Assembly (NCBI GenBank): GCA_041946735.1
Contig: JBHGAY010000012.1
Span: 64,001-128,000 of the forward strand
Direction of reading: 5' to 3'
Source of the DNA: Candidatus Eiseniibacteriota bacterium
Lineage (GTDB): Bacteria; Eisenbacteria; RBG-16-71-46; CAIMUX01; VGJL01
DNA length: 64,000 nt
A model generated the notes under the pieces. That model searched no databases, was not told where the DNA came from, and was given only the letters and a program-made list of their open reading frames with translations. The position numbers and the translations under genes were made by a program. Shown one piece after another: positions 1-17,075 of this stretch. Within the stretch, counting starts at the first letter, position 1. Each line of letters begins with the position of its first letter.

Positions 1-45
1 TGCCTTTTAAGCAGGACGTGCCGGGTTCGAGTCCCGGGCGGCTCA
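1..45 (+). tRNA. tRNA-Lys(UUU), 5'-truncated by the window edge
   Basis: Anticodon arm TGC-CTTTTAA-GCA (anticodon TTT), T-arm CCGGG-TTCGAGT-CCCGG (21-37), acceptor strand GCGGCTC plus discriminator A45. CCA is not encoded (followed by CAT). Confidence 0.9.
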
Positions 46-316
46 CATTCCCACCCCATGAGACGTCGTTGGTGGAACCTCGCGCGCCGGGACCCTCCGC
101 CGTGTGCGCGAGCGCGGGGAGCCCGGCACCCCTCGATCGAGGGCACACCGTCCACGACATCTGACGAACGTTTTGCGAACTGCGCTTTCTCCTTTCCGCC
201 TGCTCTCTCCGCTTTCCCGTGCCCGGAGCTTGTAGAAGCGTAGACGGACCCGTCGCGAAGGCACTCGCTTGCGCGCGGGACCGCTTGGCGCACGAACCTA
301 CCCATAGCGTTGTCCT

Positions 317-334
317 GCATATTGTTACATATGC
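317..334. promoter_or_regulatory. AT-rich palindrome, possible transcription-factor operator
   Basis: GCATAT-TGTTAC-ATATGC inverted repeat in an AT-rich patch of a high-GC intergenic region. Confidence 0.35.
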
Positions 335-556
335 CTTTCCACATCGAGGCCCCTTCTCTTGCGGCAAAGAACTAGCCGCTTTCCACTCGTGCGCGCGCTC
401 CTCCACGTGTTGTGCAAAAAGCAATCGCAAGGTTTTCCCTCTTCACTTTCCTGGACCGGCGTCCGATCTGCGTAGCGGGGCGAAGCTTGGACGGCCCGGG
501 GCGCGCGCAGGATTGCGCGGGAGCGTGCAATCTGCGGCGAATCGGGTCCTGCTGCG

Positions 557-585
557 TTGACAGGGCTGGGAGGCCATGTTAGCGT
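557..585 (+). promoter_or_regulatory. sigma70-type promoter P1 upstream of the giant gene
   Basis: TTGACA-17 bp-TAGCGT with extended TGn. Confidence 0.6.
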
Positions 586-729
586 CCGTCCGGCTTTCAC
601 ATAGCCCCTCATGAGGTTCTCGCCTGATGAGGGGATGGACTCGAGGGGCGCGTGCTAGGGAGGGCCGTAGTGCGCCGACGCGGACGCGAAGGATCGCTGC
701 CACCGATTCCCACCGTTCGGAATTTATCG

Positions 730-758
730 TTGACAGCCCTAGTACCCTGTGGCATAGT
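730..758 (+). promoter_or_regulatory. sigma70-type promoter P2 upstream of the giant gene
   Basis: TTGACA-17 bp-CATAGT with extended TGn. Confidence 0.6.
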
Positions 759-796
759 GCGCTGCGATCGTGATTCTGCCGTCGTAACGATCTTTG

Positions 797-809
797 TATC
801 AATGAGTTG
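797..809 (+). promoter_or_regulatory. possible IHF-binding site
   Basis: TATCAATGAGTTG matches WATCARNNNNTTR. Confidence 0.3.
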
Positions 810-1169
810 TGGCGCTTGTGCGATGGCACACGAGGGGCGGAGGTGCCTGGACTGATGACTCACAGGCCGAAACGTTCGGAAGTAGGGGCCGGCGTGTTGA
901 GAAACATTCTCCAGGGGCACCGAGGGGCAAACCGCCCGTCGGGGATTTCTGTTTTTTGCGGGAGGGCGCGCGCGAGACCCGCGCGCGCCGCTCCCTCTTC
1001 TGCTGTCTGGTGCCGATCGGGATCGGACCCTCCCGCGAGGGATTCGGAGAGGTCCCGAACTACAGGGAGGGGCAATCGAGCCGTGAGCGAGCGCTGCGGA
1101 ACCACCGGGGCTGGACGTGAGAGGCCCGGGTTCTTGGGCGGCGTCGTCATTCAAAGGAGGAGATGGGTG

Positions 1170-4100
1170 ATGAGCGGAACAAGGACCAGGACCCTCGTCT
1201 TCGTGACGGCCCTGGTGCTCTGCCTGGTCGCCGGTTTCTCCGGGGCCTTCGCAGATACGCGAGACACGGAGCCGTCGGAAAACCAGGTGATCAACTACCC
1301 GGCCTACCCGGTCGAGCCGCTGGCCGGAGGACAGTATCCGCAAGGTCCTCCGTACATTGTCTCGGCCACGTACAACCCGGAAGGCCCACGGGTCGTGATC
1401 GTCTTCAACGAAGGCGTCAATCCCACGGGAGTCAACCCGGAGGACGTCCTCTCGTCGAACACGTTCGACCTGACGCAGACCGCCTTCGGGAGCGATGACG
1501 GGGACAACGTCCTCTACCTGACGTTCGACACGACCCCCGGCAACGCCGGGTTCGACGACGCGTCGACGGAAATCTTCGCCATGCTGCCGGGCGGGTTCCA
1601 GGACGCGACGCTGATGCGCAACATGGACGTGAGCCCGATCACCGTCGGCGACGGCCCGGTGATCACCAGCGTCACGATCAGTAACCGGCAAAACGATCTG
1701 CAGGGCATCGACGGCCCGGACGACAACCAGGTGGTCGTCACCTTCGACGCCAACGTGCAGCTCGTGGGGACCGACGACGCGGCCTTCGGCTCGACTCTCG
1801 AGTTCAACGGCCAGGCGCTCGACTCCAACGTCGCCGGAAACCAGATCACGATCGGGCTGGCCACGCAGACGGCCGACACCCCGCAGTTCCTGTACATGCA
1901 GCCCGGAGTGATGAATCTCCGGCTGGCGTCGGGAACGGTCCGTTGGGTGGCGAACAACGTCTCGAACAACAAGCTGGTCTTCCGCGCGACCGCGAACGAC
2001 GGACCGCTCCTCGCGGCCGCCTACTGGCGCGACCCGGTCACCGGGGGGAGCGAGGACGCGGACGTCGCGATCGCTTTCGACCAGCCGATCACGAACAATC
2101 TGCCCGCAGACTTCGGGGCGGAGTTCGACGCGGTGCCCGACGAGACGCAGGGGACGGTAACCACCTGGTTCCCGACCTCCTGGACCAACGTCCTGCGGGT
2201 CGGAAGCTTCAGCGCGGGCTTCATCCCCTACGAGAGGATCGCGATCGACACCAACGGCAGCCTGGCAGACTACCAGAACGCCGCTGCGCTCGATCCGGAC
2301 TCGATCGACGTCCACAGGGGTCTCGGGCTCGTTCGCGCGGCGTACAACCGCAACCTGACGCCCACCGACCTGACCGACGACGAGCTCTACCTGTATTTCA
2401 CGGAGCCGATCCAGAACTCAACGGATCTGACGGCGGACAACTTCGACGACTACTTCGACCTCATCGGCTTCTCGATCGGCGACCTGCCGGTTCTGGAGTA
2501 CGTCGAGCCGTCCGGTCCGGACAACTTCTCCGTGGTCATCGTCCGGAACTGGTTCCGGGCGCAGACGGCCAACCCCTGGGAGCAGGGGGACCGGATCATC
2601 GCGAAGGACCCGGGAATCCTCCCGGATCTCGTCGGTAGCATCTCGGGCGGCGGGCTCTGGGTCGGGACGGACGAGTCGACCGAAGGGGTCTACTACCTCC
2701 CGGTCCTCGACGAGTCCCGTCCTATCCAGCTGGCGCTCGAGGACACCCACGAGACGGTCGCCGATGCCTGGACCTTCGACGACACCAATGATACCTACAC
2801 GATCTTCCTCCGCTTCTCCGAGAACAGCGCGAACGGCGCTGCGAACGGCGAGGAAGACAGCGACGAATACTTCCTGTACCCGATCCGCGCCAACGACATG
2901 GCCCTCTGGGACAAGACCCGGATGGCGACCTATCTGCCCGAGGCGATCGCGATCGGGAACCTGAGTCCGCGGCAGGTGGACGGGACGACCCGGTTGGGCG
3001 TCTACGTGTCCGTCGAGGATGTGAATCCCGCAGCTCCTCCGGGGACCATCTTCTCGACGATCGACGGGTTCGACATCACGAGTCCCGGCCAGCTCGCCTT
3101 CCTGCTCGCTGCGGCGGATTGGCAGGGGAACCTCTCCAGGATCGAGACGATCAACCCAGACGAGTACGGCTGGACCTGGCTGCTGCCGCAGCCGGCGAAC
3201 CCGGATCTCCGGGTGTACATCCAGCCGGAGTACTGCTCGCCGGAGTTCCAGGGGAACATCCCGCTCTACGGCGTGCACTTCATCCACGACTACGAAGTGG
3301 ACAGGGTTCGTTTCGAGTACCTGAAGGACGACAACGGCAACGGTTGCGACACCGACGCGGGCGAGACCTGGGAAGAGCTCGTCACCGTCGGCGGCGAGCT
3401 GGCTCCCGCGCAGCGCGGCGACCCGCTCATGTACCGCAACAACACCGACCAGGGCTGCCGGGACGACCTGCGGGCGATGAGCCTCGGGACCTGGTACGCC
3501 TTCGAGTACGACGGGGTCGATGACTACTACTACTACGATGCGGACAACGACCTGATCTACAGCCCGCGCGACATGGTCGTCCGAAGCGACGACGACGTCT
3601 TCGGCAACGGCGACGATCTGGTCGTCATCGGCTCGGACCTCTACGGCGAGTCGGTGCCCGACGGCGCGATCCTCACGGCGTTCGTCTACTACGGCGACCC
3701 GAACGAGAGCGCGACCAACCCGGCCTACTACTGGGCCGAGGCCGACGCCGAGTGCCCGGGCGATCCGATCCTCGCGAGCCAGGGAACCGAGCTCGGGATC
3801 CTCAGCCCGTCCGACTACATCTTCCGCGAGAACCGCGAAGGGTACGTCGACGGCGGCGGCGTCCTGGACCCGACCCTCCAGGGGACCAACCTCTGGACGG
3901 CCAACTGGGCGCCGTGCGAGCTCGACGATCCGGACGGCGAGTACCTCGTGCGGACGATCGCGATCGACCGCTCCGGCAACGAGGACGAGATCCAGGAACA
4001 CTGCTACGACCCGAACGCCTGGAACCCGCTCGAGGTCGAGGCGATCACGGTCGAGTGCGAGCAGAACCTGACGGTCGATCTGACGACCGTCGACGCCTAC

Positions 4101-7100
4101 GTGCCTCGCTGGGACGAAGGAGCCGACGCCTGGACCTACGACGTCGTGACCCTCGACCTGGACACCACGGCGCCGGTCGTCGATCAGCTGCCGCCCAACA
4201 CGCGGTTCTTCAGGATCAACGCCGACGTCGACGCTCCCGACGTGGAGGGAGTCGTCTTCCAGGTCGACACCCCCGACGGAAGCTTCATCGTCGGCCCGAA
4301 CCCGGATGCGGACGTCTACAGCGATCTCGACGCGCTTCCGGGCTACAACTACCAGGCGGGCAACGCCGAGTACCTGGACGACGAGCGCTTCCAGGACGAC
4401 GGCGACTTCGTTTACGAGCCGGGCACGGACACCGTGCTGGATCCCGGCCGTAACGGCGTCGTCGACACTCCTGCGGGACAGCTCCTCATCCCGCTGGTCC
4501 TCGAGGACCTTGGGGACGTCGACCAGGACAACGACGGCAACATCCTCGACAACGGCACCGCGCAGAACGAGATCGACACTGTCGCTCCGTTCACGGCGTG
4601 GTTCGACATGGACGGTTACCAGGCGCCCGGCATCGTGAACTTCACGATTACGGCGACGGCGAACCGGACGGTCGAGAGCTGCCCGGGCGGCGCCCAGGCG
4701 AGCGCCGACAGCGAGGTCATCGAGATCAACAACTGGAGCCGGCCGCTGGTCGACGTGATCCGCGTCGAGGACCAGAACGACGCGGTCATCGACGTGTGGC
4801 ACCCGGTCGCCGATGGCGATCCGTACGGGATCTACCCGACGGAAGCCGGCAGCGAGCGGACCTTCCTGATCCACGTCACGGCCGAGGATCCGGACGGCAT
4901 CCGGTGGGTGCGGCTCTTCTACCGGGCGAACCCGGCCTGCGGCGGCACGCCGACGGTCTGGACGCTCGTGAGCCCCGCCGACGTCGACACCCTCCCCGAC
5001 GGCTCTCCGTGGGATAGCTACCCCGACGTGGACTATCCCTACGAGTTCCACTGGGTGCTGGGCGCTCTCGACGACGCGAACGGCAACTACCAGTTCTACG
5101 CGGAGGCGATGGACGAGGCGGGGAACCTCTCGGGGATCCCGGTCTTCCCGTACGGCTTCGGGTTCAACGAGTACGCGGGACAGGATCTCGCGCACGTCGT
5201 CCCGCTCGCCAACACGGATCACTGCGCTCCCGGTGACACGATCACCGTCGGGGACGAGTACCTGATCACGGCCGAGCTGGCGGATCCGACGCTGGAAGGC
5301 GACGTGCAGGTGCGCTTCTACTACGCTCCGCGCGTAGTCGGCGCAACCTACGCGCCCACCGACATCGACGCCAACAACCGGCTCTATCTGGACTTCTCGA
5401 TCCTCGACCCGACGACGGGCGGCCTCTATGTCTGCGTCAACGGTGTGGAGTACTCCAACGCCAACTACACGGCGAACGCAGGAGATGACTTCATCACCTT
5501 CACGCAGCTTCCGGCCGAGGGATCGACGATCCAGGTGAGCTACAACTTCGTGAGCGCGAACTACCCGGACGGGTGGCTCCCGATCGGCGAGGGCGACGAC
5601 GTCGCTCCGTACACCGTCGAGTGGGAGGAGGGTGTCAATCCTCCGGGCGTGCCCCCGTTCCAGGAGACGATCGACAACGGCCTGCCGGGCTATGACCTGA
5701 TCGCGGTCGCGCTGATCGATGTCGACGGCGACGGCCAGTACGATCCGGGCAGCATGTGCGACGTGATGGAGGCGCTCGCGAGCGAGAACGGCAACCATCG
5801 CGTGATCGTCGAGATCGGCAAGCCGATCGTTCACCTCTACGGTCTCGACTACGAGCCGGACTTCGCGGATGCCCAGTGGCACTACCCGCAGCAGGAGTAC
5901 TGGCCGGGGAACGCCTTCGGCCCGTCGAACGGATACGTGCAGCCCGATGGCGCGGAGAAGAAGCTCTCCGGCGTCGAGTTCGACGTGTTCGTGACGGCAG
6001 CTCCCGAGGACCCGGCGACGATCGATGACGTCCGGCTGGTCATGTTCCACCAGTTCCACGCCGAGCCGTACGACTCGATCGGGATGACGCTGATCGGCGA
6101 GGGTGAAGAGTTCACCATGCCGATCACGATGTACACGCGCGACTACTACGAAGTCCGGCCGGAGGAGATCGAGAACATCACGTTGCACGTGACCGATCTC
6201 GGGACCGGGACGACGACGCAGTACGCGATGGCGCCGGACGACGCGACGGAGCGCAACTACTACCAGGCGACCGCCACGTTCACGACCGGCAAGACGTACA
6301 CGTATCAGTTCTTCATCGACAAGGTCGGCGATGACGACGGCTTCTACCTGGATCGCCGGAACTCCGGTCCGTTCCAGCAGCCTAAGGACGACATCCCCGG
6401 CTACGCGTCGCTCATCGTCACGCCGCCTTCGGACTTCTGGTACGCGCACCTCACGAGCGCGAACTACCAGGAGAACACGATCTATCGCACGAACGTCGAG
6501 GCGATCGACTCCGACGGAGTCATCGGCAGCAACATGTCGGACGGTAGCGGCGACCCGCAGGGGCCGATCGTCTACGTCTACGACACGACGGCGCCGAACA
6601 TCGTCCGTCTCTGGGCCGATCCGATGCTGGTCGGCGTCGCGGACCCGCAGACGACCCTGTGGCTCGAGGCGAACGACGAGCCGAACCTCGACGTCAACGT
6701 GATCACGACGCGGACCGTCGTGTTCCAGTACAGCCCGCTCGAGACGCCGGACGAGTGGATCACGATCGGGATCGACACGACCTACGAGGACGGCTGGTTC
6801 ATGCCGTGGACCGTCCCCAACCCGATCAGCGATCTCTACGACAACGACGGCGACGGGCAGGTGGACGAGGACGACGAGCTGCTCGCGGACTACCCGGTCC
6901 GTGCGGTGGTCTTCGACGATGCCGGGTACTATCACGACCCGTTCGTCGTGGGCTTCCCGGGCTCGGGCAACCCGAGCTACGCCAGCTCGATCATCGTCCA
7001 GTTCGACGCGTTCCCGCCGTACACGCACATCATCGATCCGCATGACGGGACGGTCTTCCCGTATGGAACGACGATCCCGGTGACCGGGGTCGCCAACGAC

Positions 7101-10100
7101 ACGCCTCCCGAGGCGGCCGTGGCGACCGGCGTCGACTTCGTCCGGTTCCAGTACAAGGACGGCCAGAACCTCTGGGTCGAGAACGGCACGGCTCCGTACT
7201 ACACGCACGGGACCGACTTCGTCTTCCGCGACGAGAACGGCAACGAGCAGTACGACGACGGAGTCGACGTGGTCCTGTTCCAGCCGACGGGCACGGCGCC
7301 CGGCGACTTCAACGGCCAGGCGGGGAACCTCTGGTTCGACATCGACCCGACGGTGAACGACAACACCGACGAGCCGATCATCCAGGCGGATGCGCCGGAT
7401 CAGACGGAGTTCTCCATCGACTTCGATACGCGGCAGGTCTGGGGTACGGAGGATCTCTACGTCCGTCTCCGGATGCTGGCGACCGACATGGCCGGCAACG
7501 AGACGATCCAGGACGACCTCCATGCCGAGGAGATCGTCATCATCCTCAACGACATCACCGCGCCGACCGCCTACCTGCAGTGGATGTCGCGGCCTTGCGA
7601 GCCGACCTGCGCCGTTCTGAGCGGCGACGAGGTCGAGGGAACCAAGGGCGCGGTCACCCTCTACGGAACGGTCCTCGATCCGACCGGCGGCCTCGAGCAC
7701 GTGGTCGCGGTCGACATCGAGATCCGGGCCGAGGGCGACACCGACTGGACGGTCCTCGGTCGCGATCAGACTCCGTTCGACGCCGAGCCGTGCGCCGACG
7801 TTCCGGATCCCAACGGGACGTTCGGGTACTTCGCGCAGGCGTGGAACACCGACGAGTATCCCGAGGGCGTGTACGAAGTCCGCGCGGTTGCGGTCGACGA
7901 CGACGGCAACCGTGACGAGGAAGGCGCCCTCATCGTCCGGGTGAACGTGGACCGTACGCCGCCGAGCGTGAACTACGCGGCGACGGAAGGCTTCCCCGGC
8001 TTCATCGAGGGGATGGCGGAGTACCAGAACGACGGCGATCCTGACAGTCCGTCGTTCGTGATCGTCCGCGATCCCGATACCGGCGACGTCGAGTTCCGGG
8101 TCTACACGACCGACCCGGACGTCCAGACGATGACGCTGCAGTGGCGCTACCCGAGCGACCCGCTCGGCCTGTGGCGGCCCTGGAGCGAGGCGTTCAACGA
8201 GTTCAACAATGCGGATCGTCGGCTCTTCACCGACTTCCAGTACGAGCCGGCCCAGAACTTCGATGACGCCTTCGTCTGGATCGCGCACGCGGAGGACTTC
8301 TTCTACGAGACCGAGCCCGGCCTGGCGGACTACCTCATCAAGAGCACGTTCGTCCAGGGTCCGGTCGAGTGGCGCGTCCTCGCGACCGACTCGGCCTGCA
8401 ACACGAACTCCGGCCAGACCGACTTCGTGACGGCGACCGTCGACCTCACCTGCCCCAGCGTCTGGGACTACGCGGTCGACAAGCCGACCCGGATCGTCGT
8501 GCCTGGCGAGGAGATGAACTTCACCGTGTTCCTGAAGGACGCCGAGAGCGACGTCCGGACGGTCACGCTCCTGGGCGTTACGGATCCCGGAACGCCGGAC
8601 GAGCATCGCTACGTCATCGCGACGGGCGAGCTGCTCCCGGTCGTCGAGGGCGAGAACGTCTTCGATCTCGGTGGGCCGAACACGCAGTGGAAGTTCACCG
8701 CGACCTGGGCGTTCCCGGACGTCGTCTACAAGGACACCCCGCTTGAGATCTGGGTGGTCCGCGGCGACGTCGCCGGCAACACCTGCGGCGAGAACGAGCG
8801 GATCGATCTGATCACGGTCCAGGACCTCGTTCCGCCGGACAACACGAAGATCGTCTACATCGCCGGCCAGGTCGCCTTGAGCGACGACCCGGCGGACTCG
8901 GTCGCCTACGACGGTGGCCTGCCCGAGCTGCTCGAGAACGACAACGTCTGGGTGAACCGCGATGGCGGCCTCATCTACACGCCGTTCGGCGGCAACGGCG
9001 ACAACGACGACTACCTGGTCAGCGAAGGCTGGACGCCCGGTGTCGAGAACAACACCGAGGCGGACATCTTCACGCTGGGTGACGAGCTGGCAACCTATCC
9101 GCGCGAAGTGAACGAGGGGTACATGGGCAACCCGGCGGCCAACCCGCCGCGCGTCGCTCGTCTCGTGACCCTCGTCGCCCGCACCTGGGCGGATGACCAG
9201 AGCTTCGGCGCAGCGGACGACGGGATCGCGAAGGTGATCTTCCTCGTCCGTCCGTTCGGCGAGACTCAGGCCGACACCCTGTCGAAGGACGAGTACCAGC
9301 CGTTCTACCCGCTCTATCTGTGGCACGCCTTCTGGAACACGCAGGCGACGCTCGATGACGGCGTCACCCCGATCTATCCGGACGGCGACTACGAGATCGC
9401 GGCGTACGGCGTCGACTCCTCCGGCAACGTCGAGGACACGGCGGCTCTCGAGTGGACCCGGGTCACGGTGGACAACACCCCGCCGGTCGCCACGATGGAC
9501 GCCGATCCGACGACGGAGACGGTCGAGCAGACCCCGACTCCGATCGACATCGAGCGGAACAGCGCGTTCCTGCTCTTCGCCCGGATCCTGCCGGAGAACC
9601 CGATCAACGACGACGCGGCGACCTTCTTCTTCAAGAGGACGCGCGATCTGAACATGGCGGGGAGCTGGCTGCAGATCCCGGCGGTCGACGATCCGAACAC
9701 TCCGATCAACGAGAACTGGGCGCGCGGTCCCGAGGACGGCAATCCCGACGACACGCGTCCGTACAGCTTCAACCTCGATCTCGGGAAGTCGATGGATCCC
9801 GTGGACTTCCTGCACTGGCTGAACGATCCGAACACCGCGCCGAAGCCCGGCCCGCTGCACGTCGGCGAGCAGTATGACTTCGTCGCGGCGGCGTCCGACC
9901 TGCTGGGGAACACCACCTCGCACCTCGACGCCTTCGCCGACAGCCTGTGGGTCCGGATCCGGATCGTCGACACGATCGCTCCGATCATGACCATCACGGC
10001 CGTGGAGCGGAACATCGGTCAGACCGACCGGATCGAGAACCCGGATCAGGTCCATGCCCAGTCGTTCGCCTACCTCGAGGCCAAGAACCTCGACGGCATG

Positions 10101-13100
10101 ACCGACCTGGACGACGTCTTCTTCGTCTATCGCCCGCAGGGCGGGACGGACTGGACGCTCCTCGACGGCACGCTCGAAGAGCTCGGGGACGGCAGCTGGC
10201 AGATCGGTCCGTGGGATCTCGCGGCTCTCGAGCACAACGCGTGGTACGAGGTGGCGGCGATTGGCGTCGACGACGTCGGCAACCAGTCCGACCCGAGCGA
10301 CGACGCGACGCCGAAGCTCCTCGTCTACGTCGACTACGAGGCGCCGGACAACTACGCCTTCACGCACCCGGCGATCGACGCGACCGACCTCTGCGACTGG
10401 TACACCGGTGGGCTGCAGGGCGTGAAGCTCTACGACCTCGCGGTTGCGGACGCGGATGACGTCGAGAACGTCGACACGTGGGACATCGTTTTCGAGTACA
10501 AGCCGAGCTCGGCGATCGACGAGCCGGGCAACTGGACGACCGTGCCGACGGGCGGCGAGAACCTCCCGGATCACCCGGTCATCCATGACGACGGCACGAA
10601 CAGCTGGTGGCAGAAGTGGGAGATCCAGGATCTGAGCACCGACCTCTACGACATCCGCGCGACCATCGAGGATGTCGCCGGGAACGTGTCGGTCCTCGGT
10701 CTCACCCGCCTCGGCTACGACAACGACGAGCCGACCGACGTCGCGATCAGCCGGATCGAGACGGTCGAGGGCGGCGACATCGAGTTCCATCCGGACGGCC
10801 TGACCGACATCGCGGCGGGGACCGTCGTCCGGGTCTGCGCTTCCGCGAAGGACGACGAACTGAACCTGCCCGAGGACCGGGAGACCGGCGTCGCGCAGTT
10901 CGTGTTCGAGGCGTCCCGCGACGGTGGCGTGACCTGGTACGACCTCGGTCTCGCCGAGGCGGCTCAGGACGCAAACGACCCGACCGACTACACCGCTTGC
11001 CTCGACTGGAACACCACGGGCCTGGCTCCGGGGACTCTCCTCTGGGTCGGCGTCACGGCGGTGGACGAGTGCGGCAACGACAGCGGCCGGATCATCTACC
11101 AGATGCGGATCAGCGACATCATCCCGCCGACGGCCCGGATCGTCTGCTTCGACCCGGATCAGCAGCCGCACGGCGAGAATCCGCCGACCTGTGTCAAGAT
11201 CTACGCCCTCGCGGAGTCCGATCCGGACATCGCCGGCGTGATCTTCCAGTACGACACGGTTGACGGGGACGAGAACCACGAGTGGGTGAACATCGGAGTG
11301 GGCGAGCCGGTCAGCGGTGTGAACGGCGGCGGCGCGCCGACCACCGAGGTCCTGTGGTGGGCGTCTCTCCAGACGACCTCCCTCGACCCGGCCGTCACCC
11401 AGTACTGGCTGCGGGCGATCGCGAAGGACGAGGTCGGGAACCAGTACGGCGATTCGCCGGACGAGGTCGTCCCGATGATGCTCGCCTCTCTCGTGACCCT
11501 GCCGGACGGCTCGATGACCTTCGAGCCGGCCCGTACGACCACCCATGCGGTCGATAACGTCTCGGTCCAGGTCGAGAGCGCGACGCGCGTCATCCTCACC
11601 GTGAAGATGGCGGACAGCGTCGAGCGTCCTCGCGTGGTCGTGCTCGCGGAGCAGCCGTACCTCGAGTCCGGCGACTTCTGCCTGCACAACAACGAGGCGT
11701 GGATCTACTCGGCCGGCACCGACGGCGACTACAACCTGCTCCGGTCCAACGACGACCCGACGGTCTGGCGCGGCGAGATCCATCTGGAAGCGGAAGGCTG
11801 CTACCAGTATTCGATCTGCGTGACCGGTACGGACGAAGGCCTCCTCGTCGACCACGTCGGCGTGGCGGTCAACCAGTACCCGGTCTCGGCTGCGCTCGGA
11901 ACGAACGGCACCGTCGTGACGCCGGGCTATGAGGACCTCGAGAGCCGCGTGACGATCGTCTCCGGCGCCATCGAGGGTGAGGATTGCCTGCTCGTCAGCC
12001 CGACCCTCCCGCCGACGCTCGACCAGGACCAGGCGGTCTACCTGGAGCCGGTCGCGGACTCGGCGTGGCACATCGAGCTGATCGGCGGCAACTTCTCCGA
12101 CTTCGCAACCGGGTATCACCCGACCGTGGTCATCGCCTACGACCAGGCGGCCGTCGATGCGGCGCTCGCCGGTAGCAACGGCGCGGTGACCGAGGACATG
12201 CTGACCGTCCGCCGCTGGAACCCGGACACGGGTAGCTGGTCGGGCAACGGAATCAGCGCCATCCGGGTCAACACGGAAGCGAACACGATCAGCTTCGCCG
12301 TCGACAACCTGTCGTCGGCTCTCGACTGCATCAACGACCTGCTGAAGAGCGACGGCGAGGGCGGCTCGAGCTGCTCCGAGGGGAACATCTTCCAGGTGTT
12401 CGCTCCGAAGAGCGCGGCGCCGGTCTTCGTCTACAGCTTCTTCCCGCACAGCGCCTATCTGAGCGACTGGTGGACCGACGCCGACCCGATCGTCAGCGCC
12501 TACTTGAACGATCTCGGCGGACAGGGCATCGACCCGACCACAGTGAAGGTCCTGATCGACGGCCGTATCGTGGCGAACATGTTCCCCGCGGGCGGCGGAG
12601 AGGCGGACTACTTCTGGGGCGAGGGCCATGCCGAGATCTGGGCGGCGAACGAGGAAGGCACCGTCTGGGAGCTCGAGTACACGCACTCCCGTCTGCAGCG
12701 TGACTGGCTGACGGAGGGACAGCACACCTTCACGGTCCAGTACCGCTCGTACGGGACGTCGGACGAGACGAGCGTCGACACTCCGTTCTTCGTCGACCTC
12801 ACCGCTCCGCAGCTCGCGTTCCACGGCGGCTGGATCGGCAACCCGCTGCTCCAGAACCTGGCCGGCTACATCGACGGTGGTCCGAACTCGATTCTGACCG
12901 TCTCGATGTACGACGGCGGCTCCGGTATCTTCGTCCGGCCCGAGCGGCAGGAGTTCCTGCCGGACCTCGACTGCGATGAGTACATCGACAGCGAGGACCT
13001 CTACGAGGAGCCGGTCTGGACGCCCGATAGCGGCTGCTGGCAGGCGGTCGACTTCGGGATCAAGTACGACCTCTGGCTGGTCCATTACGAGGACGACCAG

Positions 13101-14105
13101 CACGACATCGACGAGTTCGAAGAGAGGGTTCTGCTGCACCAGGGCACGGCGGACGAGATCCTGCCGTACCTGCAGCCGGCTCTCTACGGAACGGGCGAGA
13201 CCTACGATCCGACCGACACGCTGCTGGTCAGACTGCCGATCGTCGGCGGCGGCCGGATCCAGGAAGGGGACATCCTCGAGGTCACCGTCTACACGTTGAA
13301 GCACATCACGTCCGACGGTCCCGGCTTCGGCTGCGACTTTGCGGACACGGTGGGCATCGGTGACACGAACCTCCTGCTGCAGAACTGCTGGTTCGATTGG
13401 TCTGCAGAGGAGCTGCATGTCTACGACATGGGTGTTCTCGATCAGGTGCGGAACAGCGGAAGCAAGTTCATCGAGCAGCGGTTCGTTGTCGACATGCTGC
13501 CGCCCGCCTGCACCATCGTCCTGCCGGGCGCGACGCAGGATCCGAACCAGGACATGATCATCGATGTCACGGTCTCGGATCTCGGCGTCGGTCTCGATGT
13601 GACGAACCCGACGGTCCGAGTGGTCGGTCCCGACGGCTCTCAGATCGCGGTCCAGAACCTCGTGGTCACGGGCAACCGGATCACGGGCAAGGTCCCCGCG
13701 CCTCTGCAGACCGGCGAGTACACGATCACCGTGACCGCGTCGGATCGTCTCGGGCATGTCTGCACGACGACGAAGACGGTCCGGGTCGAAGCGGCTCAGC
13801 TCACCCTGACCGAGGCGTACAGCTACCCGAACCCGTTCGATCCTGGTCATGGCGACGTCGTCCTGAACTTCGCCGTGAGCAAGACGAGCGACGTGACCAT
13901 CAAGGTCTATGACTTCGCCGGCAACTTCGTGACGAACATCGCGACCAACCGTCAGGTGCACCCCGGTGATGCTCCCATCACCTGGGGCGGCACCAACTCG
14001 GAAGGCCAGCCGCTGGCGAATGGCGCTTACATCGTCCGTGTCGTCGCCACTGACGGCGCTCGGACGGAGCAGGCGAACCTCAAGGTGGTCATCTGGAGGG
14101 AGTAG
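1170..14105 (+). CDS. Giant (~4,311 aa) secreted acidic multi-Ig-domain surface protein with T9SS/FlgD-Ig-like C-terminal sorting domain
   Basis: AGGAGG RBS at 1155-1160; Sec signal peptide MSGTRTRTLVFVTALVLCLVAGFSGAFA|D; ~15 Y-x-x-x-A-x-A-x-D-x-x-G-N Ig-type motifs; Dx[DN]xDG Ca-binding loops; C-terminal YSYPNPF...IKVYDFAGN...WGGTN..G..LANGAYIVRV. Confidence 0.9.
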   Translation: MSGTRTRTLVFVTALVLCLVAGFSGAFADTRDTEPSENQVINYPAYPVEPLAGGQYPQGPPYIVSATYNPEGPRVVIVFNEGVNPTGVNPEDVLSSNTFDLTQTAFGSDDGDNVLYLTFDTTPGNAGFDDASTEIFAMLPGGFQDATLMRNMDVSPITVGDGPVITSVTISNRQNDLQGIDGPDDNQVVVTFDANVQLVGTDDAAFGSTLEFNGQALDSNVAGNQITIGLATQTADTPQFLYMQPGVMNLRLASGTVRWVANNVSNNKLVFRATANDGPLLAAAYWRDPVTGGSEDADVAIAFDQPITNNLPADFGAEFDAVPDETQGTVTTWFPTSWTNVLRVGSFSAGFIPYERIAIDTNGSLADYQNAAALDPDSIDVHRGLGLVRAAYNRNLTPTDLTDDELYLYFTEPIQNSTDLTADNFDDYFDLIGFSIGDLPVLEYVEPSGPDNFSVVIVRNWFRAQTANPWEQGDRIIAKDPGILPDLVGSISGGGLWVGTDESTEGVYYLPVLDESRPIQLALEDTHETVADAWTFDDTNDTYTIFLRFSENSANGAANGEEDSDEYFLYPIRANDMALWDKTRMATYLPEAIAIGNLSPRQVDGTTRLGVYVSVEDVNPAAPPGTIFSTIDGFDITSPGQLAFLLAAADWQGNLSRIETINPDEYGWTWLLPQPANPDLRVYIQPEYCSPEFQGNIPLYGVHFIHDYEVDRVRFEYLKDDNGNGCDTDAGETWEELVTVGGELAPAQRGDPLMYRNNTDQGCRDDLRAMSLGTWYAFEYDGVDDYYYYDADNDLIYSPRDMVVRSDDDVFGNGDDLVVIGSDLYGESVPDGAILTAFVYYGDPNESATNPAYYWAEADAECPGDPILASQGTELGILSPSDYIFRENREGYVDGGGVLDPTLQGTNLWTANWAPCELDDPDGEYLVRTIAIDRSGNEDEIQEHCYDPNAWNPLEVEAITVECEQNLTVDLTTVDAYVPRWDEGADAWTYDVVTLDLDTTAPVVDQLPPNTRFFRINADVDAPDVEGVVFQVDTPDGSFIVGPNPDADVYSDLDALPGYNYQAGNAEYLDDERFQDDGDFVYEPGTDTVLDPGRNGVVDTPAGQLLIPLVLEDLGDVDQDNDGNILDNGTAQNEIDTVAPFTAWFDMDGYQAPGIVNFTITATANRTVESCPGGAQASADSEVIEINNWSRPLVDVIRVEDQNDAVIDVWHPVADGDPYGIYPTEAGSERTFLIHVTAEDPDGIRWVRLFYRANPACGGTPTVWTLVSPADVDTLPDGSPWDSYPDVDYPYEFHWVLGALDDANGNYQFYAEAMDEAGNLSGIPVFPYGFGFNEYAGQDLAHVVPLANTDHCAPGDTITVGDEYLITAELADPTLEGDVQVRFYYAPRVVGATYAPTDIDANNRLYLDFSILDPTTGGLYVCVNGVEYSNANYTANAGDDFITFTQLPAEGSTIQVSYNFVSANYPDGWLPIGEGDDVAPYTVEWEEGVNPPGVPPFQETIDNGLPGYDLIAVALIDVDGDGQYDPGSMCDVMEALASENGNHRVIVEIGKPIVHLYGLDYEPDFADAQWHYPQQEYWPGNAFGPSNGYVQPDGAEKKLSGVEFDVFVTAAPEDPATIDDVRLVMFHQFHAEPYDSIGMTLIGEGEEFTMPITMYTRDYYEVRPEEIENITLHVTDLGTGTTTQYAMAPDDATERNYYQATATFTTGKTYTYQFFIDKVGDDDGFYLDRRNSGPFQQPKDDIPGYASLIVTPPSDFWYAHLTSANYQENTIYRTNVEAIDSDGVIGSNMSDGSGDPQGPIVYVYDTTAPNIVRLWADPMLVGVADPQTTLWLEANDEPNLDVNVITTRTVVFQYSPLETPDEWITIGIDTTYEDGWFMPWTVPNPISDLYDNDGDGQVDEDDELLADYPVRAVVFDDAGYYHDPFVVGFPGSGNPSYASSIIVQFDAFPPYTHIIDPHDGTVFPYGTTIPVTGVANDTPPEAAVATGVDFVRFQYKDGQNLWVENGTAPYYTHGTDFVFRDENGNEQYDDGVDVVLFQPTGTAPGDFNGQAGNLWFDIDPTVNDNTDEPIIQADAPDQTEFSIDFDTRQVWGTEDLYVRLRMLATDMAGNETIQDDLHAEEIVIILNDITAPTAYLQWMSRPCEPTCAVLSGDEVEGTKGAVTLYGTVLDPTGGLEHVVAVDIEIRAEGDTDWTVLGRDQTPFDAEPCADVPDPNGTFGYFAQAWNTDEYPEGVYEVRAVAVDDDGNRDEEGALIVRVNVDRTPPSVNYAATEGFPGFIEGMAEYQNDGDPDSPSFVIVRDPDTGDVEFRVYTTDPDVQTMTLQWRYPSDPLGLWRPWSEAFNEFNNADRRLFTDFQYEPAQNFDDAFVWIAHAEDFFYETEPGLADYLIKSTFVQGPVEWRVLATDSACNTNSGQTDFVTATVDLTCPSVWDYAVDKPTRIVVPGEEMNFTVFLKDAESDVRTVTLLGVTDPGTPDEHRYVIATGELLPVVEGENVFDLGGPNTQWKFTATWAFPDVVYKDTPLEIWVVRGDVAGNTCGENERIDLITVQDLVPPDNTKIVYIAGQVALSDDPADSVAYDGGLPELLENDNVWVNRDGGLIYTPFGGNGDNDDYLVSEGWTPGVENNTEADIFTLGDELATYPREVNEGYMGNPAANPPRVARLVTLVARTWADDQSFGAADDGIAKVIFLVRPFGETQADTLSKDEYQPFYPLYLWHAFWNTQATLDDGVTPIYPDGDYEIAAYGVDSSGNVEDTAALEWTRVTVDNTPPVATMDADPTTETVEQTPTPIDIERNSAFLLFARILPENPINDDAATFFFKRTRDLNMAGSWLQIPAVDDPNTPINENWARGPEDGNPDDTRPYSFNLDLGKSMDPVDFLHWLNDPNTAPKPGPLHVGEQYDFVAAASDLLGNTTSHLDAFADSLWVRIRIVDTIAPIMTITAVERNIGQTDRIENPDQVHAQSFAYLEAKNLDGMTDLDDVFFVYRPQGGTDWTLLDGTLEELGDGSWQIGPWDLAALEHNAWYEVAAIGVDDVGNQSDPSDDATPKLLVYVDYEAPDNYAFTHPAIDATDLCDWYTGGLQGVKLYDLAVADADDVENVDTWDIVFEYKPSSAIDEPGNWTTVPTGGENLPDHPVIHDDGTNSWWQKWEIQDLSTDLYDIRATIEDVAGNVSVLGLTRLGYDNDEPTDVAISRIETVEGGDIEFHPDGLTDIAAGTVVRVCASAKDDELNLPEDRETGVAQFVFEASRDGGVTWYDLGLAEAAQDANDPTDYTACLDWNTTGLAPGTLLWVGVTAVDECGNDSGRIIYQMRISDIIPPTARIVCFDPDQQPHGENPPTCVKIYALAESDPDIAGVIFQYDTVDGDENHEWVNIGVGEPVSGVNGGGAPTTEVLWWASLQTTSLDPAVTQYWLRAIAKDEVGNQYGDSPDEVVPMMLASLVTLPDGSMTFEPARTTTHAVDNVSVQVESATRVILTVKMADSVERPRVVVLAEQPYLESGDFCLHNNEAWIYSAGTDGDYNLLRSNDDPTVWRGEIHLEAEGCYQYSICVTGTDEGLLVDHVGVAVNQYPVSAALGTNGTVVTPGYEDLESRVTIVSGAIEGEDCLLVSPTLPPTLDQDQAVYLEPVADSAWHIELIGGNFSDFATGYHPTVVIAYDQAAVDAALAGSNGAVTEDMLTVRRWNPDTGSWSGNGISAIRVNTEANTISFAVDNLSSALDCINDLLKSDGEGGSSCSEGNIFQVFAPKSAAPVFVYSFFPHSAYLSDWWTDADPIVSAYLNDLGGQGIDPTTVKVLIDGRIVANMFPAGGGEADYFWGEGHAEIWAANEEGTVWELEYTHSRLQRDWLTEGQHTFTVQYRSYGTSDETSVDTPFFVDLTAPQLAFHGGWIGNPLLQNLAGYIDGGPNSILTVSMYDGGSGIFVRPERQEFLPDLDCDEYIDSEDLYEEPVWTPDSGCWQAVDFGIKYDLWLVHYEDDQHDIDEFEERVLLHQGTADEILPYLQPALYGTGETYDPTDTLLVRLPIVGGGRIQEGDILEVTVYTLKHITSDGPGFGCDFADTVGIGDTNLLLQNCWFDWSAEELHVYDMGVLDQVRNSGSKFIEQRFVVDMLPPACTIVLPGATQDPNQDMIIDVTVSDLGVGLDVTNPTVRVVGPDGSQIAVQNLVVTGNRITGKVPAPLQTGEYTITVTASDRLGHVCTTTKTVRVEAAQLTLTEAYSYPNPFDPGHGDVVLNFAVSKTSDVTIKVYDFAGNFVTNIATNRQVHPGDAPITWGGTNSEGQPLANGAYIVRVVATDGARTEQANLKVVIWRE

Positions 14106-14116
14106 CGGGTGAGAAG

Positions 14117-14144
14117 GCGGGGGGAGGACCCTTCCTCCCCCCGC
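14117..14144 (+). other. Intercistronic 12-bp GC stem-loop without U-tract (mRNA stability or partial attenuation)
   Basis: GCGGGGGGAGGA-CCCT-TCCTCCCCCCGC. Confidence 0.6.
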
Positions 14145-14205
14145 GATCTCGCATCTTCGACTTCGGACGAGTGAACGACGACGGGTTCAACAAGGAGGTA
14201 AGGAC

Positions 14206-15837
14206 ATGGTGAGTCTGAAGCGAGGAACGATCCTGACCCTCGTGGTCTTGACGGGATCGATCCTCCTCACTGGGCTCGCGTGGGCCGCCAGCGACAGCAA
14301 CGGGAACCATAATGCTCCCTACCTGCGCATGGGCGTCGGTGCACGGGCCCTGGGAATGGGGGGCGCCTACGTCGCGGTCGCCAACGACCTGACGGCAGGC
14401 TACTGGAACCCGGCCGGCCTCGCCTGGACCAACGGATGGCAGGTCGGCGGGATGTTCTCGAGCGGAATGGACGTCGATCGGAAGTACAACCAGATCGGCG
14501 CGTCGTATGGCGGAAGCTGGGGCGCGATCGGGTTCAACTGGCTCAACGCCGGCATGACCGACATTCCCCAGCGCAACGCGACGGGCGGGGACATGGGCAC
14601 GTTCGACTTCTCGGACAATGCCTTCATGCTCTCGCTTGCGAAGGGTTTCGATATCGCGTCCTTTGGGATCACCGGCAAGTACCTGCGTGAGGGGCTCGAC
14701 GCGAACATTCCGGGCGACGACAACGTCAACGGGTACGGAATCGACCTCGGTTTCGGCCTCGCTCTGATGGATCAGGTGCGCCTCGGGTTCGCGGTGCAGG
14801 ACATCGCCGGGTCGCTGGGCAACGCGGACGAAGACGAAGTCGACGACATCCCCACGAACCTGCGCGCCGGCCTGATGGTCGGGCCGATTCCGGGGCTGAC
14901 GGCGGCGTTCGACGTCGAGAAGACCCAGGACGACGACGACTACAAGTTCCATCTTGGCGGCGAGTACCGGATGCCTCTCTCCGAGGACTTCGGTGCCGCG
15001 GTCCGGCTGGGGCTCAACGACGGGGAGTTCGCGGCGGGGTTCGGGCTGAAGTTCCGGTTCCTCGAGGCGGACTACGCGTACGTCAACGACCAGCAGGACT
15101 TCCTGAACGAGAACCATCGCTTCTCCGTCGCCCTGAAGTTCGGCGAGGAGGAGATGATGATGACCGGTCCGGGGGCGATGCGCGACACCGATCGGGACGG
15201 GATCCCCGATGACGTGGATCAGTGCCCGACGCTCGCGGAAGACCTCGACGGCTTCATGGACAACGACGGCTGCCCCGACCCGGACAACGACGGCGACGGC
15301 ATCCCGGACATCAATGACAACTGCCCGAACCAGGCGGAAGACATGGATGGCTGGCAGGACGCCGACGGTTGCCCGGACGTCGACAACGACGGCGACGGCA
15401 TCCTCGACAAGGACGACAAGTGCCCGAACGTCGCCGAGGACGTCAACGGCTACCAGGACGACGACGGCTGCCCGGACGGCGGGCAGGCGAACGCGGGGAT
15501 CCCGGTTCTCGCATACATCAACTTCAAGTACGACAGCGCGGAGATCAGCGGCGCCGATCCGATCCCGGTCCTCGAGGACGTGGCTCGGATCATGCGGGAG
15601 CGCCCCGATCTGCGGCTGAAGATCACGGGACACACCGACTCGACCGGCAGCGACCAGTACAACATGAAGCTGTCGATGCGCCGGGCCGATGCGATCAAGG
15701 ACTATCTGGTCAAGAGGGGCGTGTCTGCGGACCGGATGGTCACCGAGGGGAAGGGCGAGAGCCAGCCGGTGGATACGAACGACACCGATCTCGGCCGCGC
15801 CCGCAACCGCCGGATCGAGTTCCAGGTCCTGCAATAG
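14206..15837 (+). CDS. PorV/PorQ-family outer-membrane barrel fused to thrombospondin type-3 repeats and an OmpA-like peptidoglycan-binding domain
   Basis: AAGGAGGT RBS; signal peptide; L.MGVGARALGMGGAYVAVANDLTAGYWNPAGLA (PorV/FadL-like N-terminus); three DxDxDGIxDxxDxCPxxAEDxxGxxDxDGCPD repeats; GHTDSTG...N..LS.RRA...NRRIEF (OmpA-C). Confidence 0.88.
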   Translation: MVSLKRGTILTLVVLTGSILLTGLAWAASDSNGNHNAPYLRMGVGARALGMGGAYVAVANDLTAGYWNPAGLAWTNGWQVGGMFSSGMDVDRKYNQIGASYGGSWGAIGFNWLNAGMTDIPQRNATGGDMGTFDFSDNAFMLSLAKGFDIASFGITGKYLREGLDANIPGDDNVNGYGIDLGFGLALMDQVRLGFAVQDIAGSLGNADEDEVDDIPTNLRAGLMVGPIPGLTAAFDVEKTQDDDDYKFHLGGEYRMPLSEDFGAAVRLGLNDGEFAAGFGLKFRFLEADYAYVNDQQDFLNENHRFSVALKFGEEEMMMTGPGAMRDTDRDGIPDDVDQCPTLAEDLDGFMDNDGCPDPDNDGDGIPDINDNCPNQAEDMDGWQDADGCPDVDNDGDGILDKDDKCPNVAEDVNGYQDDDGCPDGGQANAGIPVLAYINFKYDSAEISGADPIPVLEDVARIMRERPDLRLKITGHTDSTGSDQYNMKLSMRRADAIKDYLVKRGVSADRMVTEGKGESQPVDTNDTDLGRARNRRIEFQVLQ

Positions 15838-15897
15838 GCAGACCGGACACGATCCGTGCGGCCGGCCCGTAAGGGGCCGGACCTCGAGAACCCGTCG

Positions 15898-15930
15898 AGG
15901 CCCCATGGGAGCGATCCCATGGGGCCTTTC
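15898..15930 (+). terminator. Probable intrinsic terminator of the giant-gene/porV-ompA operon
   Basis: AGGCCCCATGGGA-GCGA-TCCCATGGGGCCT 13-bp stem with GNRA loop and short T tail; further hairpins at 15862-15900. Confidence 0.6.
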
Positions 15931-16108
15931 GCACACCCCGGCGATGCTTTCACCGAGCCTGGGCGCGTGTGCGGTGGTGCGGAGGGGCGGAGGGCGTTCT
16001 GCAACGGGGGGCGGATCGTGCATGGCGGGAGGGCGGAATGCATCGCTCCCGGGCGTTGGCAAGGCGACCGCCCGACGATAGGGCAGGCAGTTACCGTGGC
16101 GGGCGGTT

Positions 16109-16124
16109 TGGAACGGCCCCTGCT
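16109..16124 (+). promoter_or_regulatory. sigma54 (-24/-12) promoter of the pilin gene
   Basis: TGGAACGGCCCCTGCT, exact GG-N10-GC spacing, ~40 bp upstream of the pilin ATG. Confidence 0.5.
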
Positions 16125-16162
16125 ACGAGTAGGCTGGGGTCCGATCACTCTGGGGGCGCGCC

Positions 16163-16558
16163 ATGCAACTGCGGGCGGATCCGAAGTCGAGCGGCAAGGC
16201 CCGGCAGGGTGGCTTCACCCTGATCGAGCTCGTCATCGTCGTCACCATCCTCGGGATTCTCGCGTCGCTCGCGGTTCCGAACTACATGCGGGCACGCGAG
16301 CGCGCCCGGCGAGCCTCGTGCTTCTCCAACCAGAGTCATCTGCTGCTGGCGGGCTCCCTCTACGCCGCCGACCACAAGGTCTGGAACGAGGTGGTCAACA
16401 GCGGCACCCTCTGGACCCTGGGTTACGTCGGCGAGAGATGCGGCGACTGCCCCGACGACCTGGTGGAGAACGAGGGCGACTACGACGTGACGATCGCCGA
16501 CGGTCAGCCGATCTCGGTGCAATGCCTGGTCAATCCGGCGGAGCATCAGCTTCACTAG
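16163..16558 (+). CDS. Type IV pilin / pseudopilin-like protein
   Basis: Class III signal GG|FTLIELVIVVTILGILASLAVPNY with E5; several Cys in the head domain. Confidence 0.85.
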   Translation: MQLRADPKSSGKARQGGFTLIELVIVVTILGILASLAVPNYMRARERARRASCFSNQSHLLLAGSLYAADHKVWNEVVNSGTLWTLGYVGERCGDCPDDLVENEGDYDVTIADGQPISVQCLVNPAEHQLH

Positions 16559-16695
16559 GCGCCGAGCGGACGCCGCGCCGAGGCGGCGCCACCGCGAGCG
16601 GCTGCCCGGAAGCTTGACGTCCCGTCTCGCTCGTTCTGACGTCCCGACCGTCCCTACCTGCAAGGCCGCGTCCGTCAAGGATCGCCCGGCTCGCC

Positions 16696-16724
16696 TTGAC
16701 ACCCCCGGAACCCCGACCTATCGT
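16696..16724 (+). promoter_or_regulatory. sigma70-type promoter upstream of the riboflavin operon
   Basis: TTGACA-17 bp-TATCGT; -35 overlaps the inverted repeat GTCAAGG-N13-CCTTGAC. Confidence 0.55.
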
Positions 16725-16802
16725 GCCTCGGATGAATGCGACCCGCCGCTCGCGCGCGGCTGCCGCGCCCGCGCGTATCCGCCCGTTCGTCGCGAGGGGC
16801 CG

Positions 16803-17075
16803 ATGAAGTCGTTCCTGCTCTTCACTCTGCTGTGCATCGTCGTGATCCTGCTGCTTCGTTCCTCGCATCGTCGGCAACGCGACGTCGAGGCGCGCCGGCG
16901 CCCTCCCACGCCTCCTTCCCGCCGCGAGCCGCCCATCGTCCCACCCGAGGAGATCGTCGACGTGAAGTTCGAGGAGCGGCCGGAGGGGAGGTCCGGGGCG
17001 ACGAAAGGCAACGGCGCGTCGCCGGCCGCTCGCGGCGCGGAGCCGGGGCGTGAGGGGCCGAAGGAGGAGAGCTGA
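16803..17075 (+). CDS. Small membrane-anchored hypothetical protein (90 aa)
   Basis: GAGG RBS; N-terminal TM MKSFLLFTLLCIVVILLL; Pro-rich linker; EEIVDVKFEE motif. Confidence 0.6.
   Translation: MKSFLLFTLLCIVVILLLRSSHRRQRDVEARRRPPTPPSRREPPIVPPEEIVDVKFEERPEGRSGATKGNGASPAARGAEPGREGPKEES

Follow-up and report, generated by a model that had tools for sequence, protein, structure and literature searches.

The subject of this study is a two-gene unit on the forward strand of a 64-kb window (the whole stretch of DNA analyzed) of Candidatus Eiseniibacteriota contig JBHGAY010000012.1; all coordinates are window positions, and the host genome measures 4.89 Mb with 68% GC and a completeness of 94.8%. 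The first gene encodes a protein of 4,311 amino acids (hereafter the giant) with a secretion-type C-terminal domain (CTD), the second a partner in which a PorV/PorQ-family barrel is fused to a predicted peptidoglycan-binding domain. This module is real and conserved, and the mechanism proposed for it is coherent. What is new is the fused wall tether with its cargo; the module combines parts that are already known and stays near a principle already described. In our best reading, which we regard as probable, the partner would be a dedicated wall-anchored socket, matched to its own cargo and serving a surface structure that is abundant and fixed in place. The unit comprises the following features:

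730..758, + strand: sigma-70-like promoter candidate with 10 of 12 consensus matches and an extended -10, ~410 nucleotides (nt) before the giant start
1155-1160, + strand: Shine-Dalgarno sequence of the giant gene
1170..14105, + strand: giant gene (gene 1), open frame of 4,311 amino acids
1170..1253, + strand: Sec signal peptide, approximately residues 1-28, no lipobox (read by eye; same pattern in homologues)
1254..3269, + strand: N-terminal Big_5/SWM-like immunoglobulin (Ig) repeats, a lead only (ESM Atlas feature hits of 0.90-0.93, low recognition value)
3270..11762, + strand: degenerate tandem Ig-like stalk, acidic, with probably Ca-binding inserts (motifs and weak Big hits)
11763..12416, + strand: GAIN-B/ZU5-like beta-sandwich (structural match)
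12417..13496, + strand: core, the most conserved region outside the CTD and a candidate assembly domain (identity profile)
13497..14102, + strand: Ig domain and type-A-like CTD, the latter being residues 4209-4311 (profile and fold matches)
14117..14144, + strand: GC-rich intergenic hairpin of 12 pairs without T tract (z -4.5), missed in the first reading
14206..15837, + strand: partner gene (gene 2), 543 amino acids with signal peptide, PorV/PorQ-family barrel, TSP3 repeats and OmpA-C
14293..15153, + strand: FadL-fold barrel, residues 30-316, 14 strands in the model, predicted CTD receptor
15178..15480, + strand: three TSP3-type (DGCP-type) repeats, predicted periplasmic spacer (profile and repeat count)
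15499..15834, + strand: predicted OmpA-C peptidoglycan-binding domain with D478, N486 and R493 (profile and conserved residues)
15897..15929, + strand: terminator-like hairpin after the partner gene, 14 pairs, z -4.4, only three T

An earlier note on this DNA described gene 1 as a ~4,311-residue signal-peptide protein with a FlgD-Ig end like that of type IX secretion system (T9SS) cargo, and the open frame and a Pfam FlgD_ig match over cut-off (41.1 bits vs 27, residues 4236-4296) bear this out. Por_Secre_tail stays under its cut-off (TIGR04183, the type A model, 18.9 vs 23), and the C-terminal region gives weaker matches to the PorU and PorZ C-terminus models. The fold of the CTD matches the PorZ CTD (Z 10.4) and mirolase CTDs, and G48 in the beta3-beta4 loop and K102 in the last strand are invariant in 35 giant CTDs. 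Type A cargo features are thus present in the giant, i.e., signal peptide, C-terminal Ig-like CTD and the conserved Gly and Lys; for type B, neither CHU_C nor a type B model matched it at E up to 0.1.

Gene 2 has likewise the composition that had been read from it, a PorV/PorQ-type barrel with three TSP3 repeats and an OmpA-C domain, as all three profiles score over cut-off: NF033709 for the PorV/PorQ family (103.3 vs 90, residues 36-312), TSP_3 (28.2 vs 25) and OmpA (83.3 vs 27.2). When the barrel was checked for the nature of an ordinary FadL/OmpA porin, PorV came out best by structure (6h3i_F; Z 30.2, root-mean-square deviation (rmsd) 3.8, 281 aligned) and by profile, being the sole clear match (E 2e-12 vs 0.07 for a FadL-type channel); the FadL homologue 3dwo reaches Z 28.9 and BamG Z ~24. 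The equivalog models NF033710 and NF033711 (cut-offs 250 and 220 bits) are not among the partner's best 25 families listed, the last of which stands at 47 bits, and the best PorV match of the host genome is another paralogue (123.6 bits). The partner therefore belongs to the PorV/PorQ family and is, by the equivalog models, not a PorV or PorQ orthologue. By barrel topology, an even strand number puts the C-terminus of a barrel in the periplasm, which places the TSP3 and OmpA-C parts of the partner there. The number of TSP3 units varies among 31 complete homologous tails (26 tails have three, three have a single unit, one has four and one lacks them), so that this stretch behaves as a spacer. 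Of 50 fusions, 49 retain D478 of the OmpA-C domain and all 50 retain N486 and R493; the spacing of these three residues is that of D576, N584 and R591 of PorE, reported to bind the stem peptide (PMC7192894).

The pairing of both genes is well-illustrated by their linkage. From 36 fetched fusion-type loci, for which two contig-end fragments were left out, one lacks upstream DNA, and in all 35 evaluable loci a giant homologue lies directly upstream of the fusion (one frameshifted throughout, two split once). Thirteen complete giant homologues of 4,349-5,581 amino acids are collinear with the giant of the window. In the reverse view, which covers largely the same loci, each of 31 loci with the giant core has the barrel next, 29 with OmpA and two cut by contig ends. 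The linkage of fusions to CTD cargo, which the earlier note had wanted surveyed, is complete in the loci examined. Named close homologues come from Candidatus Eisenbacteria. Across 206 phylum genomes the partner barrel is present as a single copy in 38, with 297-398 bits vs at most 174 for other paralogues, and at this level it is absent from the two largest families. Farther afield, a set of 21 loci (with labels such as Zixibacteria, Ignavibacteria and Elusimicrobia) contains 17 in which the CTD protein is immediately followed by a barrel of the same clade. In a quick version of the barrel tree with midpoint root, the 35 fusion barrels group together with a support of 98, nested in a broader clade of giant partners (97) from which the host's other paralogues are excluded. 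If this root is accepted, the cargo-barrel pairing would be older than the tether, and the tether an add-on. The other seven PorV paralogues of the host genome are also often found near cargo genes, five lying <4 kb from a CTD gene and four at most 250 nt away.

A second line of evidence is a sequence signature in the giant CTD, seen against the 252 CTD proteins of the host genome (iterated profile, our own gene calls). Interface column 46 holds F or W in 35/35 giant CTDs and in 0/251 other host-genome CTDs, and column 49 holds R in 215/251 of the others and in 0/35 giants. The giant CTD is marked by this family-specific aromatic of the beta3-beta4 loop and by a terminal Trp; the terminal columns were trimmed from the alignment and are not comparable across CTDs, and W among the last five residues is found in 9/252 CTD proteins. 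The loop aromatic returns in 10/10 distant-lineage CTDs shown. In an independent metagenome set of 80 loci, sorted by barrel score, 12 barrels reach at least 250 bits; a CTD gene immediately precedes 11 of them (just 326 nt of sequence are available before the twelfth) and the aromatic is present in 9/11 of these CTDs, whereas for barrels <210 bits a CTD lies upstream in 14/66 and the aromatic is seen in 0/5 readable motifs.

The third line is structural. Modeled together, the giant CTD and the partner barrel reach a complex score of 0.93 (best control 0.00), with contacts that agree by at least 90% between runs and a partner pLDDT, the per-residue model confidence, of at least 92; the mark used for this score is reached by 116/157 solved complexes and 2/215 mismatches. 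The model shows likeness to solved complexes and does not by itself establish binding or specificity. Its interface would bring the N-terminal tail and outer loops of the barrel against the beta3-beta4 loop and last strand of the CTD. The barrel interface residues R41, D91 and R92 are conserved, and on the CTD side, motifs in the same loop and strand are reported to be needed for export (PMC11285876).

The claim that the module is self-contained did not hold, since export must use an SprA encoded elsewhere. Such a translocon was sought in the host genome and found (TIGR04189, 492 bits vs 200, in a 2,109-aa frame), next to PorU (596 bits vs 420) and eight PorV-family genes over cut-off. At E 1e-10, SprA_N is detected in 27/34 other genomes of the order and misses the host genome itself; five fusion-bearing misses were retested with TIGR04189, of which four matched and one did not. 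The look-up of sprA, porU and porKLMN thus succeeded for the first two, while the PorL, PorM and PorN counterparts GldL, GldM and GldN were not found in the host genome, in a search in which no positive control rang and GldK was not included. GldN and GldM were found in 0/206 phylum genomes, again with no positive control ringing. The host and these genomes may possess a T9SS in which the known motor and ring are missing. PF11751 (PorP) does not match the partner and gave a blank host-genome search with a silent control; for PorE nothing over cut-off was found in the host genome, which encodes four other OmpA-C proteins.

Features of the predicted transcript hint at unequal amounts of both proteins. 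A stem of at least 10 perfect pairs starting at most 30 nt past the giant stop is present in 33/35 loci with differing sequences, compared to 36/704 co-directional gaps of 60-200 nt in the host genome, and in 15/17 distant loci; it is followed by four or more T in just 4/35. As 3' stem-loops are reported to set unequal transcript levels within operons (PMC4423207), the intergenic hairpin is a candidate mRNA-stabilizing or partial-termination element. In codon likeness to a 38-gene, mostly ribosomal reference, the giant ranks 4th and the barrel 16th of 1,312 genes, the giant ranks 2nd of 228 among CTD proteins, and its use of C-ending codons exceeds that of the barrel in 26/28 loci. Together with the sigma-70-like sites described below, hairpin and codon patterns point indirectly to an abundant giant in excess over its partner, as would be expected if the giant formed a polymeric coat or the barrel were a recycling shuttle; with an internal hairpin suggesting unequal amounts, a simple 1:1 display is not established.

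Several known systems provide the elements for a mechanism. Similar to the PorP/SprF and PorE systems with type B cargo (P. gingivalis PG1035-PorP-PorE, F. johnsoniae Fjoh_3952-3951-3950, SprB-SprF), the large cargo here is encoded beside its own 14-stranded FadL-family barrel. In those systems the CTD is kept and static anchoring via an OmpA-C domain has been proposed, providing a precedent for a barrel with an OmpA protein (PMC9143113, PMC12618676). The coupling of OmpA-C to a barrel is shared, here by fusion and with D478/N486/R493, yet the pair has a PorV/PorQ-family barrel and a type-A-like FlgD-Ig CTD, and a single polypeptide contains the barrel, a TSP3 spacer and the wall-binding domain. 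In the case of PorQ-PorZ and PorV-PorU, a PorV-family barrel is proposed to collect one cargo from Sov/SprA, and the PorU and PorZ CTDs stay uncleaved (PMC10947112). The giant resembles these cargos in its C-terminal region, which matches both models and the PorZ CTD fold, but it is a 0.47-MDa, non-enzymatic-looking protein and its barrel carries a wall anchor. A FadL-fold barrel that serves as docking pillar for a surface protein, and not as channel, is also reported for BamG-BamH of the Bacteroidota BAM complex (PMC12611786); there, the partner is a lipoprotein, the role is outer-membrane protein assembly, and CTD and wall anchor are lacking. By analogy, the pair may work like PG1035-PorP-PorE and Fjoh_3952-3951-3950 and recognize like PorQ-PorZ, being a member of neither, nor of TraAB; the socket is best read as an analogue of PorP-PorE in a single protein, with recognition of the PorQ-PorZ type. 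In the literature searched, where subscription journals are mostly not covered, neither a PorV-OmpA fusion nor this giant-partner pair was found to be described.

Accordingly arranged, the proposed steps are as follows. The giant would pass the inner membrane via Sec and the outer membrane via SprA, using its CTD. At SprA it would be collected by the partner barrel, and not by a general PorV, through the family-specific CTD surface seen in the model, a specificity that the signature and the linkage suggest. The CTD would then remain uncleaved on the outer loops of the barrel, like PorZ on PorQ, while the periplasmic TSP3 spacer would let OmpA-C grip peptidoglycan and immobilize the complex, as its fold and conserved residues predict. 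In the weakest step, the hairpin might yield more giant than barrel, so that only some subunits of a coat or fiber would be riveted. The idea of a cargo-specific PorV that holds the giant, put forward in the earlier note, is strengthened by linkage, signature and complex model; its novelty shrinks, since dedication was already proposed for PorQ-PorZ and the pairing needs no tether.

Other observations weigh against the wall-anchored socket. The loci are related, so that the linkage counts are not independent. PorV-CTD complexes have already been solved (8gl6 and others) and our model may pass by likeness to them; moreover, its controls included no non-cognate CTD. The signature position is Leu in three pairs of family f16 and in the CTDs of 2/11 high-scoring metagenome barrels. 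In other lineages, 16 complete barrels of the partner clade that lack OmpA stand after related giants, and no OmpA domain is present in any of the 21 distant loci, indicating that wall binding is not needed for pairing. Codon bias is weak in the host genome, the codon effect is small in absolute terms, and the gene calls are our own. With GldL, GldM and GldN not found, the powering of export is left unexplained. The host encodes PorU, which could cleave the CTD of the giant; the C-terminal region of the giant scores well on the PorU model, and what separates cleaved from uncleaved CTDs is unknown according to PMC11285876. Finally, an excess of giant also fits a recycling shuttle.

Such a recycling shuttle is the main rival, although we consider it rather unlikely. 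The sole role of the barrel would be to free a cargo of this size from SprA and to pass it on to PorU for CTD cleavage and lipopolysaccharide (LPS) attachment, or to release it, with OmpA-C parking the shuttle near export sites. It accommodates the conserved hairpin and codon pattern, which suggest more cargo than barrel, the PorU gene of the host and the existence of OmpA-less partners. It also has a parallel in the large T9SS proteins of the Tannerella S-layer, which form a surface coat after CTD cleavage and LPS anchoring (PMC12175726); no sequence match of the giant to these proteins was found. A wall clamp, however, would hinder shuttling, the barrel gene itself has a high codon rank (16 of 1,312), and few parts of the giant are as well conserved as the CTD, in keeping with an interface that lasts.

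Still less probable is a general OmpA-like tether between outer membrane and wall, co-expressed with the main surface protein, under which CTD binding would be an ancestral trait and the giant would not be held by the anchor. TSP3 and OmpA-C tails are indeed found on many unrelated proteins of the phylum, where most of 166 genomes match residues 322-542 only, as well as in Capnocytophaga OmpA (5wtl). The four other OmpA-C proteins of the host genome and the conserved R41, D91 and R92 speak against it, and a polypeptide that binds the CTD as well as the wall holds its cargo in place whatever the selective reason.

We give very little credit to a TraAB-like function, with the giant as polymorphic homotypic receptor and the wall-anchored barrel transmitting force for kin recognition or outer-membrane exchange. 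The earlier note had pointed to TraB, and the likeness stands for the C-terminal half and falls for the barrel half: the TraB model gives the partner 154 bits against a cut-off of 700, its best stretch is residues 380-542, and a stand-alone barrel of the partner clade is without TraB match. In myxobacterial TraA-TraB, too, a surface protein is combined with a barrel-TSP3-OmpA partner, and TraA has been modeled atop the barrel (PMC12045341), and four giant homologues carry vWA inserts that would suit a receptor. Barrel family and sorting signal differ, however; the giant ends in a CTD and not in MYXO-CTERM, profile searches found no homology between giant and TraA, and the giant is collinear across families with no single obvious variable tip. 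Chance neighbors or an ordinary FadL-type transporter are largely refuted and hardly credible, as the linkage is complete while downstream neighbors change (no third gene in more than 13/25 loci) and the profile match favors PorV clearly over a FadL-type channel, close as the FadL homologue is in structural score.

If the wall-anchored socket is correct, cargo-specific barrels, established for type B CTDs, extend to type-A-like CTDs, with a concrete sequence code of two loop positions and a terminal Trp. The partner would unite, in one natural fusion, the shuttle and wall-anchor roles for which Bacteroidota have PorP and PorE. The pair would further point to the surface structure that probably dominates in an uncultured phylum, and to a T9SS-like export of very large cargo in genomes where motor genes were sought and not found.

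The architecture of the giant itself gives some hints at its job. It is the largest of the 252 CTD proteins (runner-up 1,873 amino acids), with 17% D+E, 4% K+R and 37 Cys. Ten of its 11 A/G-x-D-x-x-G-N motifs lie within 3270..11762, and this stalk gives weak Big_3_3, Big_13 and Big_7 matches in both giant and homologues. The beta-sandwich behind it matches GAIN domains and ankyrin ZU5 (Z 9.3-10.2, rmsd 2.7-3.3, 127-146 aligned); an autoproteolytic GAIN/GPS site was rejected, as the site residues vary among homologues. In a homologue comparison the core has a mean identity of 0.38-0.46 per 100 residues vs 0.18-0.41 farther upstream. No enzyme family matched the giant in profile searches, the ESM Atlas returned nothing at 0.9 or above for residues 3520-4200, and Foldseek with the C-terminal 790 residues gave generic multi-Ig matches alone (template modeling score ~0.2), with S-layers and adhesins as well as titin and complement among them. 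A structural coat or S-layer-like lattice, our tentative first choice, is favored by the single copy, the predicted abundance and the collinearity across families; the vWA inserts favor adhesion, and a long adhesin is a serious though somewhat less plausible possibility, with any other job unlikely. It is doubtful, though conceivable, that the whole chain applies: the giant as 0.45-0.6 MDa subunit of an unrecognized coat or sheath of several Eisenbacteria families, made in excess under control of the intergenic RNA hairpin, fixed through the outer membrane to peptidoglycan by less numerous PorV-OmpA sockets that recognize a CTD code of their own, and exported by SprA without recognizable GldLM motor and GldKN ring.

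The boundaries of the unit are less sharp than its content. A closing terminator had been claimed and has in its favor the strong 14-pair hairpin after the partner gene, but the T tail is short and the terminator scan did not call the hairpin at 15897-15928; long stems, often with T-rich tails, are found 3' of most homologous barrels. Upstream, the promoter scan found 3 sites vs 1.1 expected in 17.5 kb. The candidate at ~410 nt implies a long 5' leader, and sigma-70-like sites lie 390-510 nt upstream of the giant in 8/14 loci (no shuffle control). A second sigma-70-like site is present at 557-585, ~170 nt before the first, and a site 580-655 nt upstream recurs in 7/14 loci. In most order-level loci, a short conserved motif between the genes (14183-14199) extends into the Shine-Dalgarno sequence of the barrel gene, frequently preceded by another small hairpin; it is possibly a processing or translation-control site. 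A giant start at 807 was rejected, since Shine-Dalgarno sequence and signal peptide agree with 1170, and the antisense frame 2418-13961 was rejected as the shadow of a GC-rich giant gene.

The surroundings are of housekeeping type, with tig, clpP, clpX and purA (named by eye) and tRNA-Lys upstream and a prepilin-like gene and ribD downstream. Rfam gave on 1-17000 only a weak tRNA end at 1-45, where tRNA-Lys was confirmed. The small gene after the putative operon (16163-16558) has a prepilin-type N-terminal methylation signal, and similar genes are found 3' of the barrel in 6/25 loci; a third fixed gene in the unit was rejected, as downstream clusters reach at most 13/25 loci.

Further arrangements of related genes were observed. 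Eight more barrel-like or TSP3/OmpA matches include one PorV-like fusion with its upstream region cut (L156:997-2814, genome G039). Together with L088:13168-18125 (G038) it represents a second, distant PorV-like-TSP3-OmpA fusion on a long branch outside the main clade, possibly of independent origin; the L088 fusion follows a 1,093-aa CTD protein with CglD-like and DUF11 matches. In family f16 (L085-L087), CTD giants of ~2,950 amino acids are alignable to the window giant at the C-terminus only, and in each case the next gene encodes a barrel of the partner clade without OmpA. In the host genome, three operons combine a TonB-dependent receptor, a CTD protein and a PorV-family gene (C13:32392-38927, L089; C11:14038-21222, L094; C35:18689-27667, L092), one of them continuing with a GWxTD protein. 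An M6-like inactivated metalloprotease with CTD is encoded immediately after the host's best PorV-equivalog match (C11:91563-95941, L091).

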